A stretch of DNA of 12,710 bases from a virus (lineage: Duplodnaviria; Heunggongvirae; Uroviricota; Caudoviricetes). Positions within the stretch are counted from its first letter, which is position 1. Each line of letters starts with the position of its first letter. Under the pieces are notes generated by a model. The model saw only the letters and a program-made list of their open reading frames with translations. It did no database searches and was not told the origin of the DNA. The stretch lies in the IMG/VR virus record IMGVR_UViG_2529292985_000033, one strand, 5' to 3'. Made by a program: the position numbers and the translations under genes. Below, piece after piece: positions 1 to 12,710 of the stretch.

Positions 1-966
1 ATGACCAATAATCCCCCTTCAGCACAGATTAAGCCCGGCGAGTATGGTTTCCCCCTCAAGTTAAAAGCCCGCTATGACAACTTTATTGGCGGCGAATGGG
101 TAGCCCCTGCCGATGGTGAGTATTACCAGAACCTGACGCCGGTGACTGGGCAGCTGCTGTGCGAAGTGGCGTCTTCGGGCAAACGAGACATCGATCTGGC
201 GCTAGATGCTGCGCACAAAGTGAAAGATAAATGGGCGCACACCTCGGTGCAGGATCGCGCGGCGATTCTGTTTAAGATTGCCGATCGAATGGAACAAAAC
301 CTCGAGCTGTTAGCGACAGCTGAAACCTGGGATAACGGCAAACCCATTCGCGAAACCAGTGCTGCCGACGTGCCGCTGGCGATTGATCATTTTCGCTATT
401 TCGCCTCGTGTATTCGGGCGCAGGAAGGTGGGATCAGTGAAGTTGATAGCGAAACCGTGGCCTATCATTTCCATGAACCGTTAGGCGTGGTGGGGCAGAT
501 TATCCCGTGGAACTTCCCGCTGCTGATGGCGAGCTGGAAAATGGCTCCCGCGCTGGCGGCGGGCAACTGTGTGGTGCTGAAACCCGCACGTCTTACCCCG
601 CTTTCTGTACTGCTGCTAATGGAAATTGTCGGTGATTTACTGCCGCCGGGCGTGGTGAACGTGGTCAATGGCGCAGGTGGGGAAATTGGCGAATATCTGG
701 CGACCTCGAAACGCATCGCCAAAGTGGCGTTTACCGGCTCAACGGAAGTGGGCCAACAAATTATGCAATACGCAACGCAAAACATTATTCCGGTGACGCT
801 GGAGTTGGGCGGTAAGTCGCCAAATATCTTCTTTGCTGATGTGATGGATGAAGAAGATGCCTTTTTCGATAAAGCGCTGGAAGGCTTTGCACTGTTTGCC
901 TTTAACCAGGGCGAAGTTTGCACCTGTCCGAGTCGTGCTTTAGTGCAGGAATCTATCTACGAACGC
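1..966 (+). pseudogene. aldB: aldB 5' fragment (aldehyde dehydrogenase B), interrupted after codon 322 by IS1
   Basis: Translation from position 1 matches my recollection of E. coli AldB up to ...[10 protein letters not shown]. From 967 the frame continues into the IS1 terminal repeat ([26 protein letters not shown]), which is not AldB sequence. Confidence 0.9.
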
Positions 967-981
967 GGTAATGACTCCAAC

Positions 982-1485
982 TTACTGATAGTGTTTTATG
1001 TTCAGATAATGCCCGATGACCTTGTCATGCAGCTCCACCGATTTTGAGAACGACAGTGACTTCCGTCCCAGCCTTGCCAGATGTTGTCTCAGATTCAGAT
1101 TATGTCGCTCAATGCGCTGAGTGTAACGCTTGCTGATAACGTGCAGCTTTCCCTTCAGGCGTGATTCATACAGCGGCCAGCCATCCGTCATCCATACCAC
1201 GACCTCAAAGGCCGACAGCAGGCTCAGAAGACGCTCCAGTGTGGCCAGAGTGCGTTCACCGAAGACGTGCGCCACAACCGTCCTCCGTATCCTGTCATAC
1301 GCGTAAAACAGCCAGCGCTGACGTGATTTAGCACCGACGTAGCCCCACTGTTCGTCCATTTCAGCGCAGACAATCACATCACTGCCCGGTTGTATGCGCG
1401 AGGTTACCGACTGCGGCCTGAGTTTTTTAAGTGACGGAAAACCGTGTTGAGGCCAACGCCCATAATGCGTGCACTGGCGCGACAT
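982..1485 (-). CDS. insB: IS1 transposase InsB-frame ORF (iso-IS1 variant)
   Basis: 167-aa ORF with recognisable IS1 InsB sequence (…[21 protein letters not shown]…[52 protein letters not shown]…). Confidence 0.85.
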
Positions 1486-1567
1486 CCGACGCCATTCATG
1501 GCCATATCAATGATTTTCTGGTGCGTACCGGGCTGAGAGGCGGTGTAAGTGAACTGTAGTTGCCATG
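1404..1567 (-). pseudogene. insA: IS1 insA, 5'-truncated by the IS2 junction
   Basis: Encodes …[51 protein letters not shown], the C-terminal part of InsA. The Cys-rich N-terminus is absent and the apparent N-terminus of the track ORF lies inside IS2. Confidence 0.8.
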
Positions 1568-1578
1568 TGGATTTGCCC

Positions 1579-2484
1579 CTATATTTCCAGACATCTGTTA
1601 TCACTTAACCCATTACAAGCCCGCTGCCGCAGATATTCCCGTGGCGAGCGATAACCCAGCGCACTATGCGGATGCCATTCGTTATAATGCTCGAACGCCT
1701 CTGCAAGGTTCTTTGCTGCCGTTAACTCGTCTGGTTTGGGCATGATACTGATGTAGTCACGCTTTATCGTTTTCACGAAGCTCTCTGCTATTCCGTTACT
1801 CTCCGGACTCCGCACCGCCGTGTTCTTCGGTTCAAGTCCCAACATCCGGGCGAACTGGCGTGTTTCATTAGCCCGGTAGCATGAACCATTATCCGTCAGC
1901 CACTCCACTGGAGACGACGGAAGATCGTTGCCGAAGCGGCGTTCCACCGCTCCCAGCATGACGTCCTGTACTGTTTCACTGTTGAAGCCGCCGGTAGTCA
2001 CCGCCCAGTGCAGTGCCTCACGATCACAGCAGTCCAGCGCGAACGTGACACGCAGTCTCTCTCCGTTATCACAGCAGAACTCGAACCCGTCAGAGCACCA
2101 TCGCTGATTGCTTTCTTTCACGGCCACTCTGCCTGTATGTGCCCGTTTCGATGGCGGTACAGCAGGTTTTCGCTCAAGCAACAGCGCATTCTGGCGCATG
2201 ATCCGGTAAACACGTTTGGCATTGATCGCAGGCATACCATCAAGTTCTGCCTGTCTGCGAAGCAGCGCCCATACCCGACGATAACCATACGTGGGCAGCT
2301 CTCCGATAACATGGTGTATACGGAGAAGCACATCCGTATCATCAGTGTGACGACTGCGGCGGCCATCCATCCAGTCATCGGTTCGTCTGAGAATGACGTG
2401 CAACTGCGCACGCGACACCCGGAGACAACGGCTGACTAAGCTTACTCCCCATCCCCGGGCAATAAGGGCGCGTGCGCTATCCAC
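1579..2484 (-). CDS. insD: IS2 transposase OrfB (InsD), 301 aa
   Basis: ORF track protein matches IS2 InsD; it overlaps insC in the -1 frame as in IS3-family frameshift transposases. Confidence 0.9.
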
Positions 2485-2807
2485 TTTTTTGCCCGTCCAT
2501 ATTCAACGGCTTCTTTGAGGAGTTCATTTTCCATCGTTTTCTTGCCGAGCAGGCGCTGGAGTTCTTTAATCTGCTTCATGGCGGCAGCAAGTTCAGAGGC
2601 AGGAACAACCTGTTCTCCGGCGGCCACAGCAGTAAGACTTCCTTCCTGGTATTGCTTACGCCAGAGAAATAACTGGCTGGCTGCTACACCATGTTGCCGG
2701 GCAACGAGGGAGACCGTCATCCCCGGTTCAAAGCTCTGCTGAACAATTGCGATCTTTTCCTGTGTGGTACGCCGTCTGCGTTTCTCCGGCCCTAAGACAT
2801 CAATCAT
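2442..2807 (-). CDS. insC: IS2 OrfA (InsC), 121 aa; start taken at MIDVLGPEK
   Basis: [56 protein letters not shown]… is the HTH-containing IS2 OrfA. The track ORF extends 15 codons upstream, which I treat as non-coding. Confidence 0.9.
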
Positions 2808-2953
2808 CTGTACTCCAATGACTAGTCTAAAAACTAGTATTAAGACTATCACTTATTTAAGTGATACTGGTTGTCTGGAGATTCAGGGGGCCAGTCTACC
2901 CACTGACACTACCGGTGAGTTTAACGATACCTTCCATTTGACTGGCTCACTTT

Positions 2954-5461: not shown

Positions 5462-5830
5462 GAGAGTGGCGCTATGTGCCATTGCATGGTGCCGGGTGCC
5501 TCCCGGTAAATTCAGCCTGTCTACTGAATTTGCATGTTCTCTGGATCATACACTTTGCCAGATGCCCCGCCGCTGAGGGGGATTCACCATGCGATGTAAT
5601 TTTTAACAAATTCTCCGGCAGCCAGACAATCATCAAGCTGTGGAATTGTGAGGTATTTAAAAATTTCAACGGGTAACTGATACCCTGCTAATCGCCTGAT
5701 GCTTTCTTTTTCAGCAACGGGAAAGCAACAACCACCACACCCGCCACCAAAACATCATCAGACAGCACCGACATTATCCGGCTGCTGAAGTCCACCATCA
5801 CCACCAGAAACAACAGGAGTGCAACCACAG

Positions 5831-5873
5831 CTGCTTAGAAGGCAATTGCTCTGTCCGGCTGAGCTAACAACGC
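5831..5873 (-). pseudogene. argO: tRNA-Arg(UCU)-like 5' fragment (acceptor, D-arm and anticodon arm only; T-arm and 3' acceptor strand missing)
   Basis: Minus-strand sequence GCGTTGTTAGCTCAGCCGGACAGAGCAATTGCCTTCTAAGCAGC folds as the 5' half of a tRNA with anticodon loop CTTCTAA. Sequence below 5831 has no T-loop or complementary acceptor strand. Gene symbol is by synteny with Stx-phage ileZ-argN-argO and is uncertain. Confidence 0.5.
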
Positions 5874-5887
5874 AGAATACCGATAAA

Positions 5888-5964
5888 TGGACCGCCATCG
5901 AGAACTCGAACCCCGCGCAACCAGCTTCGAAGGCTGGCGCTCTATCCCGATGAGCTAATGGCGG
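5888..5964 (-). tRNA. argN: tRNA-Arg, anticodon UCG (77 nt)
   Basis: Manual cloverleaf: acceptor CCGCCAT/ATGGCGG, D-stem GCTC/GAGC, anticodon stem CCAGC/GCTGG, loop CTTCGAA, T-loop TTCGAGT, 3' TCCA. Symbol by synteny only. Confidence 0.75.
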
Positions 5965-5971
5965 TATGTGA

Positions 5972-6047
5972 TGGTGGCCCTTGCTGGATTTGAACCAGCG
6001 ACCTGGCGATTATGAGTCGCTCGCTCTCACCACTGAGCTAAAGGGCC
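5972..6047 (-). tRNA. ileZ: tRNA-Ile2 (anticodon CAU, lysidine type; automatic tools may call it tRNA-Met), 76 nt
   Basis: Minus strand GGCCCTTTAGCTCAGTGGTGAGAGCGAGCGACTCATAATCGCCAGGTCGCTGGTTCAAATCCAGCAAGGGCCACCA closely resembles E. coli ileX-type tRNA, with anticodon loop CTCATAA and CCA end. Confidence 0.85.
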
Positions 6048-6087
6048 GGAAGCCGCATGATAACGACGCGTAATTAATTCTGCAATA

Positions 6088-7146
6088 TCATCCGTTCTGG
6101 CTGACTAAATCCTGTACTTCCCGAACCGTCTGCTCAAAACGTCCGGTCTCCAGCTCAACGCCAATCGCACGACGCCCGAGCGCCAGTGCCGCTTTTACCG
6201 TTGAACCTGAGTCCATAAAAAAATCTGCAACCAGGTCACCCGGACGACTGCTTGCGCTGATTATCTGCTGCAGCATTTCTGCCGGTTTTTCGCACGGATG
6301 TTTCCCGGGATAGAACTGCACCGGTTTATGTGTCCACACATCCGTGTACGGCACCTGCGCCGTCACACCAAAATACCGCCGCAGATGCTTATATTCACTC
6401 TGCAGCTCCACATACTGCCGATTCAGTGACGTATACGTATCCACCAGCTGGTGGTGGGGCTTTTCCAGTTCACCGCGCTGATGTTTCTCTTCTGCCACCC
6501 GGGCAAACAGCGACTGTAATTTCAGATAATCGCTTTCGTTCGGTAGCTGCCACTGACTGGCACTGAACCAGTGCGACACCATGTTTTTCTTTCCTGTGGC
6601 ATCTGCAATCTGTTTTGCCGTTATCCCCAGGGCCGCGCGCGCATCACGAAAGTAAGAAATCAGCGGGGCCATCACATGCTGTTTCAGTGCACTGCCCTTC
6701 GCCGCATACCCGGCATCTTTCGGACGATACGGCCCCTGATAATGTTCCGCGAACAGAATGCGCTCTGTGGCGGGGAAATACGCCCGCAGGCTTTCCTTGT
6801 TGCATCCGTTCCAGCGTCCGGACGGCTTCGCCCAGATAATATGGTTCAGCACACTGAAGCGTTCACGCATCATGATTTCGATATCAGATGCCAGGCGATG
6901 ACCACAGAACAGGTAAAGACTTCCGGCAGGTTTCAGCACCCGCCAGAACTGCGCCAGACACTGGTCCAGCCACTTCAGGTAATCATCGTCGCCCTTCCAC
7001 TGGTTATCCCAGCCCTCAGGCTTCACTTTAAAGTACGGCGGGTCCGTGACTATCAGGTCAACAGAATTTTCGGGTAACGACCAGATAAATTCCAGGCAGT
7101 CGGCGTTGATTAACTCACAACTGGATATTTTTACAGTATTAAGCAT
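6088..7146 (-). CDS. DNA methyltransferase, beta-class amino-MTase (N6-adenine or N4-cytosine), no adjacent restriction gene
   Basis: DPPY catalytic motif near the N-terminus (…DLIVTDPPYF…) and an AdoMet-binding motif near the C-terminus (…DLVADFFMDSGST…). This circular-permutation order is typical of beta-class MTases. Position between Q and the tRNA array matches Stx-type phages. Confidence 0.85.
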   Translation of the reverse strand: MLNTVKISSCELINADCLEFIWSLPENSVDLIVTDPPYFKVKPEGWDNQWKGDDDYLKWLDQCLAQFWRVLKPAGSLYLFCGHRLASDIEIMMRERFSVLNHIIWAKPSGRWNGCNKESLRAYFPATERILFAEHYQGPYRPKDAGYAAKGSALKQHVMAPLISYFRDARAALGITAKQIADATGKKNMVSHWFSASQWQLPNESDYLKLQSLFARVAEEKHQRGELEKPHHQLVDTYTSLNRQYVELQSEYKHLRRYFGVTAQVPYTDVWTHKPVQFYPGKHPCEKPAEMLQQIISASSRPGDLVADFFMDSGSTVKAALALGRRAIGVELETGRFEQTVREVQDLVSQNG

Positions 7147-7240
7147 GGATCATTAAGCCTGTCTCTGATAGGCTCATTCTGCTTTTGCGCAAAGCAGTGG
7201 GCCTGAGGTTTGCTTGTGAACCCAACGCATGAGCAGATGG

Positions 7241-7267
7241 CTGGTGGGTGCCCCTAACACCCACCAG
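7241..7267. other. Perfect 10-bp inverted repeat CTGGTGGGTG-N7-CACCCACCAG (stable hairpin, no U-tract)
   Basis: Read directly from the sequence; lies in the 150-bp leader between the small HTH ORF and the MTase start. Confidence 0.6.
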
Positions 7268-7283
7268 CCGCCCATTTACCACA

Positions 7284-7310
7284 AATAAAAAAGCCTTCAC
7301 TGCGGAAGGC
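7284..7310 (-). terminator. Intrinsic terminator-like hairpin (GCCTTC-N6-GAAGGC) followed on the minus strand by UUUUUUAUUU
   Basis: Stem at 7293-7298 / 7305-7310 with a plus-strand A-run at 7284-7292. It overlaps the stop codon of the 7297-7494 ORF. Confidence 0.55.
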
Positions 7311-7494
7311 GTCTGTAACAACCGAACTGATAGTCTGCCAGACCCGCCATAACCAGCTGGGTCAGTATTAACTGGCAGCGTTCGCGTGAAAGGTAAGTAT
7401 TCTGCGCAATCTCCCCGACTGTCGCCGGGTCGTTAACGCTTAATTCATTAAACACCACTCTGGCGGTTTCTGTCATATCCTGCTGTTTTAGCAT
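7297..7494 (-). CDS. Hypothetical 65-aa protein with HTH-like segment (…ATVGEIAQNTYLSRERCQLILTQLV…), first ORF of the late transcript
   Basis: Start chosen at MLKQQDM (ATG 7492-7494), preceded by AAGGGAAAAAGAC. The longer track ORF (to 7581) would run through the tR'-like terminator. The motif assignment is by eye only. Confidence 0.4.
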   Translation of the reverse strand: MLKQQDMTETARVVFNELSVNDPATVGEIAQNTYLSRERCQLILTQLVMAGLADYQFGCYRRLPQ

Positions 7495-7614
7495 GTCTTT
7501 TTCCCTTTTCCGGTTAACGTGACACACCAATAACTCTTGTCGAAAAAGCCAGCAAGCTGAAAGACAGGTATTCACCGCCACCAGCGCGTTTACTGTACTG
7601 ACGCGATTTCAGTC

Positions 7615-7638
7615 ATAAAAAACCCGCCAGGCGGCGGG
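7615..7638 (-). terminator. tR'-like intrinsic terminator just downstream of the late promoter
   Basis: Minus-strand RNA CCCGCC-GCCU-GGCGGG followed by UUUUUU (plus-strand A-run 7615-7622), about 45-65 nt downstream of the predicted pR' start. This matches the lambdoid pR'-tR' short-transcript arrangement. Confidence 0.65.
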
Positions 7639-7687
7639 GTGTAAAAAATCTTCTAACGTCAGGCATAAAACGCCCATCGTTAGAGCA

Positions 7688-7715
7688 AATTTACCACAGA
7701 TTCGGGAAAAATCAA
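7688..7715 (-). promoter_or_regulatory. pR'-like late promoter (-35 TTGATT, 16-nt spacer, -10 TAAATT) immediately downstream of the Q-like gene
   Basis: Minus strand reads TTGATTtttcccgaatctgtggTAAATT; lambda pR' has the same TAAATT -10. Located 6 bp after the stop of the 273-aa ORF. Confidence 0.5.
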
Positions 7716-7720
7716 CAACA

Positions 7721-8542
7721 CTATCGCGTTACCCTCTTTAACTGCCGCTCCGCCCATGCCTCTTCAATGTCAAACCGAACCACCAACGTATCGTAAAAGC
7801 GTTTCACTGATTTTTTCCACGTATCAAGCGTGATAGCACTCGTCACTTTGCATATGGCATTAAATGCCTCCGTTGATGGTAGTCTTTCACAGCCACGACC
7901 ACCACAACGCTGGCAGTCTCTGATAACAGGCATACCACGTTTTACCGACTCTTCACGATGAATGGCGACACCACGCCCACGGCAATCCTTACAGGCGGTG
8001 GAAACCTCACCCTTTCCGCCACACTCCGGACAGGCAACTTTTACCACCTCCCTGACTTTTTTCCATTCTTCCCAGTAAGACGGATACACACCTTTCGTAC
8101 ACTTTGCCCATACCGGCGGCTTACCATCCGGATACTGGACCTTGTTTGTAAAAACTACGCTTTCAATAAATTTTTCCCCATAGCAACAAGGGCACTGCTT
8201 TTTACTCGCTGCGCTGCGGGCATAATCCTCAAAAGCGTACGAAGCCATAATGCGCATCACTACCGGTTTTATTTCTGCCGGAAGTTTTCTCAACGCCGCC
8301 ACACGATCGCACCGACTGAGTGCATAATCTGCCAGTAATTCTGTTGCCCGCGCCCTGTCATTCATACTGATGCCCATTTTCCCCAGGAACGCAGAAAACC
8401 CCATCTCAGCCCGATTCTGTGTCATGCCCTGCGCGGCCATCACATCAGTGATACTCAGCGCATCTTTTGACGTTGAGGCCGATACATCGGTCAGGCCAGG
8501 GGATTTTGGGGAGTAGTATTTCGGTAAATCTTCCAGTTTCAT
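7721..8542 (-). CDS. Probable late-gene antiterminator Q-like protein (273 aa) with four CxxC pairs (zinc-ribbon-like)
   Basis: Sits immediately upstream of the pR'/tR' pair and downstream of rusA, the canonical Q position. Contains CPCCYGEK, CPECGGKGE, CKDCRGRG and CQRCGGRGCE. Its start overlaps the rusA stop (ATGA). Assignment is by synteny, not sequence recognition. Confidence 0.55.
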   Translation of the reverse strand: MKLEDLPKYYSPKSPGLTDVSASTSKDALSITDVMAAQGMTQNRAEMGFSAFLGKMGISMNDRARATELLADYALSRCDRVAALRKLPAEIKPVVMRIMASYAFEDYARSAASKKQCPCCYGEKFIESVVFTNKVQYPDGKPPVWAKCTKGVYPSYWEEWKKVREVVKVACPECGGKGEVSTACKDCRGRGVAIHREESVKRGMPVIRDCQRCGGRGCERLPSTEAFNAICKVTSAITLDTWKKSVKRFYDTLVVRFDIEEAWAERQLKRVTR

Positions 8543-10786: not shown

Positions 10787-10942
10787 TTACTCCTCAGGTT
10801 CGTAAGCTGTGAAGACAGCGACCTCCGTCTGGCCGGTTCGGATTCGTACCTCGCAGAGGTCTTTCCTCGTTACCAGTGCCGTCACAATGACGGTTAAACA
10901 GATGACGATCAGGGCGATTAGCATCGCCTTTTGCTGCTTCAT
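10787..10942 (-). CDS. hokD: HokD (RelF) type I toxin, 51 aa
   Basis: MKQQKAMLIALIVICLTVIVTALVTRKDLCEVRIRTGQTEVAVFTAYEPEE matches HokD as I recall it. The track ORF extends 19 codons upstream in frame to 10999. Confidence 0.9.
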   Translation of the reverse strand: MKQQKAMLIALIVICLTVIVTALVTRKDLCEVRIRTGQTEVAVFTAYEPEE

Positions 10943-11118
10943 AGCCTGCTTCTCCTTGCCTTTCGGCACGTAAGAGGCTAACCTACGTGTGTAGAGCATA
11001 GATATGGCCTCAGATTAATGTTAAGCGTCTTGCCGGACGCGTAATGTTAACTGGGGCTTTTCTCTATCTGCCTTTTGGTGTTCATGCCTGAGACAGATAG
11101 CCTCAAGCACCCGCTGCA

Positions 11119-11467: not shown

Positions 11468-11481
11468 CTTTGGATTTGCCC

Positions 11482-12387
11482 CTATATTTCCAGACATCTG
11501 TTATCACTTAACCCATTACAAGCCCGCTGCCGCAGATATTCCCGTGGCGAGCGATAACCCAGCGCACTATGCGGATGCCATTCGTTATAATGCTCGAACG
11601 CCTCTGCAAGGTTCTTTGCTGCCGTTAACCCGTCTGGTTTGGGCATGATACTGATGTAGTCACGCTTTATCGTTTTCACGAAGCTCTCTGCTATTCCGTT
11701 ACTCTCCGGACTCCGCACCGCCGTGTTCTTCGGTTCAAGTCCCAACATCCGGGCGAACTGGCGTGTTTCATTAGCCCGGTAGCATGAACCATTATCCGTC
11801 AGCCACTCCACTGGAGACGACGGAAGATCGTTGCCGAAGCGGCGTTCCACCGCTCCCAGCATGACGTCCTGTACTGTTTCACTGTTGAAGCCGCCGGTAG
11901 TCACCGCCCAGTGCAGTGCCTCACGATCACAGCAGTCCAGCGCGAACGTGACACGCAGTCTCTCTCCGTTATCACAGCAGAACTCGAACCCGTCAGAGCA
12001 CCATCGCTGATTGCTTTCTTTCACGGCCACTCTGCCTGTATGTGCCCGTTTCGATGGTGGTACAGCAGGTTTTCGCTCAAGCAACAGCGCATTCTGGCGC
12101 ATGATCCGGTAAACACGTTTGGCATTGATCGCAGGCATACCATCAAGTTCTGCCTGTCTGCGAAGCAGCGCCCATACCCGACGATAACCATACGTGGGCA
12201 GCTCTCCGATAACATGGTGTATACGGAGAAGCACATCCGTATCATCAGTGTGACGACTGCGGCGGCCATCCATCCAGTCATCGGTTCGTCTGAGAATGAC
12301 GTGCAACTGCGCACGCGACACCCGGAGACAACGGCTGACTAAGCTTACTCCCCATCCCCGGGCAATAAGGGCGCGTGCGCTATCCAC
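11482..12387 (-). CDS. insD: IS2 transposase OrfB (InsD), copy 2 (E to G substitution relative to copy 1)
   Basis: 301-aa ORF identical to copy 1 except PKPDELT to PKPDGLT. Confidence 0.9.
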
Positions 12388-12710
12388 TTTTTTGCCCGTC
12401 CATATTCAACGGCTTCTTTGAGGAGTTCATTTTCCATCGTTTTCTTGCCGAGCAGGCGCTGGAGTTCTTTAATCTGCTTCATGGCGGCAGCAAGTTCAGA
12501 GGCAGGAACAACCTGTTCTCCGGCGGCCACAGCAGTAAGACTTCCTTCCTGGTATTGCTTACGCCAGAGAAATAACTGGCTGGCTGCTACACCATGTTGC
12601 CGGGCAACGAGGGAGACCGTCATCCCCGGTTCAAAGCTCTGCTGAACAATTGCGATCTTTTCCTGTGTGGTACGCCGTCTGCGTTTCTCCGGCCCTAAGA
12701 CATCAATCAT
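12345..12710 (-). CDS. insC: IS2 OrfA (InsC), copy 2; start codon is the last codon of the window
   Basis: 121-aa ORF identical to copy 1 InsC. Confidence 0.9.

Follow-up and report, generated by a model that had tools for sequence, protein, structure and literature searches.

Gene content of the locus

The window, that is, the whole 12,710-nucleotide stretch of DNA analysed here, was 100% identical to the draft contig AERM01000123.1 (GCA_000193895.2). The ORF listing placed a methylase gene of 352 aa on its minus strand at 6088..7146, with the ATG at 7144-7146 and the stop codon at 6088-6090. This ORF fills exactly the span that a preliminary description of the same DNA had assigned to a solitary amino-methyltransferase, and it contains neither a frameshift nor an internal stop. 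The exact protein is on record as a methyltransferase of Shigella dysenteriae. Along the minus strand, the gene order upstream was IS2, sok/hokD, rem, a 92-aa ORF, a DUF968 gene, rusA and Q, and that downstream of Q was a 65-aa ORF, the methylase, tRNA(CAT), tRNA-Arg and STnc100. Beyond STnc100 lay an iraM/PmrD-like gene on the opposite strand, a SASA (NanS-p-like) esterase gene, IS2, IS1 and a truncated aldB.

The antiterminator Q (7721..8542, minus strand; 273 aa) matched PF03589 of Pfam, with a zinc-finger segment. Two hairpins on the same strand were found by the terminator scan. The first, G+C-rich and followed by a T-run (7623..7638), lies 83 nt past the Q stop codon and is a candidate tR' of the late promoter; the second, terminator-like and also with a T-run (7293..7310), lies between the 65-aa ORF and the methylase. 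The 65-aa ORF (7297..7494, minus strand) belongs to PHROG 331 and gave a weak TrmB/winged-helix match in the profile search (E=0.005). No consensus sigma-70 promoter was found in the scan of 5800-7800; a weaker TTGATT-17-TAAATT at about 7716-7688 (minus strand) was noticed by eye only and is not claimed as pR'. Directly 3' of the methylase, ARAGORN located a phage tRNA(CAT) (5972-6047, minus strand), which is followed by a phage tRNA-Arg(TCG) (5888-5964, minus strand). The former is read as Met by ARAGORN and in Stx2_EH2201, versus lysidine-modified tRNA-Ile (ileZ) in E. coli YJ4 and phiP27. The sRNA STnc100 (RF02076; 5431-5622, minus strand) was matched over its full length with 130.6 bits, in the stretch that separates the phage tRNAs from the iraM-like gene.

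Comparison by blastn with the loci of an Stx2 phage and phiP27 delimited a mosaic module (5832..7637, minus strand) made up of the tR'-like hairpin, the 65-aa ORF, the terminator, the methylase and the tRNAs. Over 5832-7637/7638, the identities were 94.6% to the Stx2a phage EH2201 and 86.5% to phiP27, and the similarity to both begins exactly at the first hairpin and stops past the tRNAs, after which stxAB comes in EH2201-type Stx phages and phiP27. The same order, Q, a 63-65-aa ORF, ~150 nt, the methylase, tRNAs or other cargo, and holin, was found in E. coli YJ4, Stx2 phages, phiP27, Pantoea and Klebsiella, and holds with Q proteins of two Pfam families. In the slot downstream of Q, stx is transcribed from pR' under Q antitermination (PMC6266700); the methylase is unmentioned in that comparative paper on pR'. 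Based on the recurring order and the analogy with stx, the leader of the late operon was accepted as the normal position of the family.

Three further features of this slot were observed. Irrespective of the Q type, the M.EcoGII-type gene is always preceded at a distance of ~150 nt by the 63-65-aa ORF in E. coli, Stx phages, phiP27, Pantoea and Klebsiella (loci L001 7210-7407, L002 7211-7408, L003 5210-5407, L012 4659-4853 and L014 4660-4851), and this ORF has a terminator-like hairpin of its own behind it; by analogy with the controller proteins of restriction-modification (R-M) systems, it could regulate the methylase or act as its partner. In phiP27 (L003), gene L22 (5623-6852), of the GIY-YIG nuclease family, lies between Q and the small ORF; neither the window nor any other relative examined has it. 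A prophage of Klebsiella michiganensis (L014 7143-8808) has AcrVA2-like and Cas1 Pfam matches in the cargo slot before holin, an unusual moron set.

The surrounding prophage is interrupted on both sides. One IS2 copy on the late side (1568..2898, minus strand) replaces the link to the holin and lysis genes, and a second, running off the window (11471..12710, minus strand), parts the hokD-Q segment from other prophage genes, which in sister genomes are Ead/Ea22-like and small ORFs. The two copies, which are 99.8% alike, run in the same direction, bracketing an 8.6-kb prophage fragment like a composite element. The copy adjoining the esterase gene is absent from the sister Shigella genomes L006 and L011, in which the prophage around the same methylase allele is more complete and includes genes for holin, lysozyme, Rz and terminase, indicating that the allele is older than some of the decay. 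No repressor (cI), N or replication (O/P) genes were seen on either side of the segment, and the prophage is therefore regarded as a remnant. Since this IS-bracketed remnant is without an early regulatory region, expression of a late transcript in this host is doubtful. Thus, the placing of the gene on the late transcript in the preliminary description agrees with the family slot downstream of Q and with the two hairpins, but is doubtful as to expression here.

At the upstream margin, a type I toxin-antitoxin pair (10787-11112, minus strand), consisting of a Hok/Gef ORF (PF01848, E=2.9e-23) and an Rfam sok match of 117 bits, directly adjoins the IS2 insertion; it is the hokD locus of Qin-like prophages. 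At the other margin, the aldehyde dehydrogenase gene aldB (window 1-1604) is cut to 348 codons by an IS1 that abuts IS2 and whose insA/insB ORFs lie at 982-1604, and according to the gene list of L010 the prophage fragment is joined via IS elements to the chromosomal aldB, Fe-ADH and selB region.

An orphan methylase of the M.EcoGI/M.EcoGII family

The methylase product matched the PF01555 N6_N4_Mtase profile over aa 29-340 (E=3.6e-42), a similarity too strong to be chance, as well as the PADLOC model MTase_II (Type II methyltransferase, E=1e-164) and PHROG 'DNA methyltransferase' families. The catalytic and adenine-binding motif IV, DPPY, is intact at aa 35-38 (7033..7044, minus strand), where it had been clearly recognised before; it conforms to (D/N/S)PP(Y/F/W), and among 106 aligned homologues D35 was invariant while P36, P37 and Y38 were each at least 90% conserved. 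The protein has the class I Rossmann-like methyltransferase fold. As DPPY (aa 35) comes before motif I (aa 308), its domain order, motif IV, target recognition domain (TRD), motif I, is that of the beta class and the reverse of the Dam-type alpha-class order, in which FxGxG is N-terminal and DPPY C-terminal to the TRD. This order and the PF01555 match uphold the earlier assignment to the beta-class amino-methyltransferases.

The stretch between the two motifs had been described as an insert of ~150 aa to which no role could be assigned. It corresponds to the ordinary beta-class TRD and linker, which have already been modelled for M.EcoGII, and is predicted from secondary structure to be all-alpha over about aa 136-262 (6361..6729 for aa 140-262, minus strand), with helices in the AF2 model at 146-158, 160-173, 177-184, 187-194, 204-220 and 231-255. 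The peptide quoted from it in the preliminary description, ATGKKNMVSHWF...EKPHH, lies at aa 183-232 (window 6451-6600). In beta-class enzymes, the TRD separates the half bearing motifs IV-VIII from that bearing motifs X-I (PMC7544214). M.EcoGII was described as a Rossmann domain (1-134 and 260-349) with a four-helix-bundle TRD containing a helix-turn-helix (HTH) at 160-237, and its charged flexible linker was proposed as the source of base-independent nucleic-acid binding (PMC11551740). When modelled alone, the TRD of the window protein gave a lambda-repressor-like HTH bundle followed by a long helix and matched XRE/lambda-repressor HTH folds, so that the predicted architecture has both the HTH four-helix bundle and the charged helical linker of M.EcoGI/M.EcoGII. 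Secondary structure and alignment put the HTH core at aa 177-194 (AKQIADATGKKNMVSHWF; 6565..6618, minus strand), followed by a conserved SQWxLP segment, in whose region H, Q, W and P are conserved (alignment A2). The helix that follows the TRD consists in many distant homologues of tandem charged heptad-like repeats, e.g. LRREYEDLRREYEDLRRPF, in up to 5-6 copies; the repeat number varies between these homologues, and the version in the window protein is non-repetitive.

The window protein was 93.7% identical over 349 aa to M.EcoGII as printed in supplement 5 of PMC11551740, a close identity over the full length; the value was computed from this machine-read text rather than from GenBank EGT69837.1, and because of its OCR errors can only be an underestimate. 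The methylase gene of phage 1720a-02, named by Murray et al. as a carrier of a very similar methyltransferase (PMC5778455), was 95.2% identical at the nucleotide level along its entire length. Between M.EcoGI and M.EcoGII, the identity is 95% (PMC5778455), with 16 of 349 residues different, and the window protein is about equally close to M.EcoGII. These identities place it in the characterised M.EcoGI/M.EcoGII family rather than make it a new enzyme. M.EcoGII, a 349-aa beta-class enzyme from a cryptic prophage of E. coli O104:H4 C227-11, methylates adenine in any context in dsDNA, ssDNA, RNA and hybrids, is unexpressed in the lysogen, and is toxic or deleterious when expressed constitutively (PMC5778455). 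It elutes as a dimer (PMC11551740), and prophage methylases are listed as 'M.EcoGI/GII, nonspecific' in Table 3 of PMC6602927. The relaxed specificity suggested in the preliminary description therefore applies at the level of the family, M.EcoGII having none. That description had also counted identity with a well-characterised enzyme against its own proposal, and such an identity is what was found, the M.EcoGI/M.EcoGII family being both characterised and in commercial use. M.EcoGII is sold as an enzyme and serves as a chromatin-footprinting reagent.

Two other candidates were set aside. M.EcoGIX was rejected as the identity of the window protein, being plasmid-borne and single-strand specific (PMC7736820). 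The 'adenine DNA methyltransferase' gene disrupted by IS629 in an O157 Stx2a phage (PMC4587872) lies at phage position 2456, outside the Q-stx region, and apparently corresponds to the MT-A70 gene that is the subject of PMC10810198, which differs in family and locus.

The neighbours of the methylase are Q, the 65-aa ORF, the two tRNAs, the sRNA, the IraM/PmrD-like gene and the SASA esterase gene. None of the five neighbouring products tested matched a PADLOC defence or nuclease model, which supports the earlier statement that the methylase is solitary, with no endonuclease gene adjacent as would be expected of a Type II R-M system. Further, no cognate endonuclease gene was found within the prophage segment or in the relatives' loci in E. 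coli, an Stx2 phage, Pantoea and Klebsiella. The gene is thus an orphan on a lambdoid prophage, in the context hokD, rem, DUF968, rusA, Q, methyltransferase, tRNAs and SASA esterase.

A glycine-to-aspartate substitution in motif I

The SAM-binding motif I (aa 308-316; 6199..6225, minus strand) reads DFFMDSGST in alignment with homologues instead of DFFMGSGST (aa 305-316, L-V-A-D-F-F-M-D-S-G-S-T), with Asp in place of the first Gly of FxGxG. The SAM-binding loop typical of the beta class is thus replaced by F-M-D-S-G, although F310, S313, G314 and T316 are retained. The preliminary description had called a FxxDxFxGSGST-like motif clear, which fits the close relatives with DFFMGSGST but not the window protein. 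Codon 312 (6211..6213, minus strand) is GAC (Asp), versus GGC or GGG (Gly) in relatives, and G312D corresponds to a single G>A transition (GGC>GAC) relative to E. coli YJ4. Compared with this nearest E. coli copy (98.8% nucleotide identity), the gene has five synonymous codon changes, and outside the variable C-terminal tail only two non-synonymous ones, R22W (CGG>TGG) and G312D. The allele at locus L001 stops three codons before that of the window.

Conservation at this position was then compared among homologues. In 120 close cluster representatives, residue 312 was Gly in 119 and Asp in none, and it was the only departure of the window protein from residues conserved at 95% or more. In full-length representatives at 33-69% identity, Gly was found in 113 of 114, again with no Asp, the sole non-Gly case being a protein with a non-homologous C-terminus; the second Gly of the motif was less conserved (89/114) than Gly312. 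Overall, 232 of the 234 aligned homologues carry Gly at 312, a conservation like that of the catalytic Asp, and both exceptions have divergent or non-homologous C-termini. Consistently, pairwise alignments placed D312 opposite Gly in M.BceJIV, RsrI, CcrM, MboIIA and M1.HpyAVI (G197 in the last), and Gly occupied the first-Gly position of motif I in every solved beta-class structure aligned.

Of 5426 complete E. coli genomes, 1979 gave a megablast match to the methylase gene, which covered 80% or more of its length in 1917 of them, and the best identity was 98.8%; the gene was also matched in 38 phage records, mostly of Stx2 phages. A 61-nt query centred on codon 312 matched 493 complete E. coli genomes at 500 places, always at 98.4% (one mismatch) and never exactly. 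In contrast, D312 and W22 were found in all eight Shigella loci fetched. In the sequence collection, 64 blocks are indexed for the exact protein, from which 24 contigs were examined, and the allele in several Shigella genomes differs by one synonymous change only. The absence of exact E. coli matches, together with D312 in 8/8 Shigella loci, indicates that the change is real and lineage-specific.

The functional importance of this Gly is known from related enzymes. In M1.HpyAVI, the G197A change revealed the residue to be crucial for AdoMet binding, and the authors of that study noted that EcoKI and EcoP15I lose AdoMet binding altogether when this Gly is mutated (PMC5173035). The motif I change G177D of EcoKI affected cofactor binding (PMC2647291). 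By analogy, the charged and bulkier Asp312 should at least cripple AdoMet binding, and the window copy is probably an inactive allele of the M.EcoGII type. A motif substitution visible on alignment was the other finding that the preliminary description had counted against an active enzyme, and G312D, at the first Gly of FxGxG, is such a substitution. Some residual activity is nevertheless possible, since the ORF is full-length, DPPY and the other conserved residues are intact, and the changes are few.

Interpretation and comparison with known methyltransferases

Taken together, the gene is best read as an allele of an M.EcoGII-type late-operon methylase whose frame is complete but whose product is catalytically dead or crippled, retained within a prophage remnant riddled with IS elements; we assign this reading a probability of roughly three in four. 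Its ancestor would have been an orphan beta-class N6-adenine methylase of lambdoid prophages, encoded by the first large gene of a Q-dependent late operon. The wild-type enzyme is silent in the lysogen; on induction, it would methylate adenines in any context, and the progeny DNA would thereby escape adenine-sensitive restriction. The HTH bundle with its long basic helix may hold nucleic acid without reading the bases. In this copy, the G>A transition has produced G312D in the SAM-binding loop, so that AdoMet would no longer be bound properly, and, with the prophage cut by IS2 and IS1 and its early region not in view, the relic would also not be normally expressed.

A tolerated Asp312, leaving a fully functional orphan enzyme of no or relaxed specificity that protects phage DNA, is unlikely. 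The open full-length frame with DPPY and the remaining motif I residues retained, the persistence of the allele in several Shigella genomes with one synonymous difference, and an AF2 model that is confident around motif I would be compatible with such an enzyme, although AF2 is insensitive to single substitutions. However, Gly312 is as conserved as the catalytic Asp (232/234, without a single Asp), even a Gly>Ala change cripples AdoMet binding in an FMGSG enzyme while Gly>Asp affects cofactor binding in EcoKI, and Asp would put a side chain and a negative charge into a tight loop that packs against AdoMet.

Another reading overlaps with the preferred one as to inactivity, but holds that G312D was selected, either because it detoxifies an enzyme deregulated after the IS2 insertions or because it yields a dominant-negative partner of other copies. 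The deleterious effect of constitutive M.EcoGII (PMC5778455) and its elution as a dimer (PMC11551740) speak for it, as do the transcription of the IS2 at 11471-12710 in the same direction as hokD, Q and the methyltransferase and the frame having stayed open despite the motif I change. Beta-class enzymes work as dimers. Two terminator-like hairpins, however, still precede the methylase, Shigella genomes are known to gather inactivating changes through drift, and a single missense change cannot tell selection from drift, which together make this reading quite unlikely. Its most specific form, in which G312D is a safety catch, i.e. a SAM-binding-dead but folded, dimer-forming and DNA-binding protein fixed after IS2 had uncoupled the gene from repressor control, is very unlikely; if true, the protein would be a dominant-negative inhibitor of other M.EcoGII-type copies or a methylation-independent nucleic-acid binder. 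Finally, that the methylase is the modification half of an R-M system with an unrecognised endonuclease is extremely improbable, since, despite the PADLOC label 'MTase_II' of the family and the GIY-YIG gene of phiP27, no nuclease-like ORF lies beside it here or in the E. coli, Stx2 phage, Pantoea and Klebsiella loci, and the M.EcoGII prototype is an orphan whose lack of sequence specificity is incompatible with a cognate Type II endonuclease.

With the M.EcoGII family already characterised, little in the preferred reading, a dead or crippled allele, is new: the family, fold, TRD, orphan status, silence in the lysogen and biochemistry of the M.EcoGII type are published. The natural motif I substitution in a Shigella lineage is the only item without a counterpart in the literature searched, and most simply it means gene decay. 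Annotation pipelines label the Shigella gene 'site-specific DNA-methyltransferase', whereas the prototype of the family lacks site specificity and this allele is, judging from its motif I, probably inactive. As a natural motif I mutant, the allele could be paired with a D312G revertant to probe the SAM loop of the M.EcoGII scaffold cleanly. In addition, the conserved placement among Q, the 65-aa ORF, the methylase, stx or other cargo and the lysis genes fits silence in the lysogen and synthesis only on induction.

Among known enzymes, M.EcoPA8orf6770P resembles the window protein in being annotated as an 'adenine methyltransferase' in Stx prophages. It belongs to the MT-A70 family and methylates 16S rRNA with its partner PNB-2 (PMC10810198), and differs in its DPPW motif, its locus near the integrase end, its need for a partner subunit and its unrelated architecture. 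M1.HpyAVI, the beta-class N6A methyltransferase of Helicobacter pylori (PDB 5HEK/5HFJ), shares ~30% identity with the window protein and has the motif FMGSG, but its TRD is small and disordered rather than an HTH bundle, and it lies in a chromosomal R-M context rather than in a phage late operon. M.BceJIV and CcrM (GANTC/GTWWAC-type regulators; 8URK, 6PBD) and M.MboIIA (1G60) are sequence-specific, with a different or absent TRD architecture, and only ~200-220 of the 352 residues superpose on them.

The phage-borne relatives are much closer. Stx2_EH2201, 1720a-02, Stx2a_WGPS2 and phiP27, in which gene L24 is the 'DNA methylase', share the same module with 84-95% nucleotide identity over the whole gene. 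In the copies of Stx2 phages and phiP27, the motif I Gly is retained and stxAB comes next, whereas the stx slot of the window holds only the sRNA STnc100 and the iraM-like gene, in a prophage that is an IS-bounded remnant. The closest likeness is to M.EcoGII itself, which shares with the window protein the order DPPY, TRD, FxGxG, the HTH-bundle TRD and the charged helical linker, and with the gene the orphan status and the location on a lambdoid prophage. The window protein differs from it by FMDSG (G312D) versus FMGSG, by R22W, by a length of 352 versus 349 aa including the C-terminal tail, and by ~17-20 further differences, most of which fall in the helix that follows the TRD (aa 234-265).
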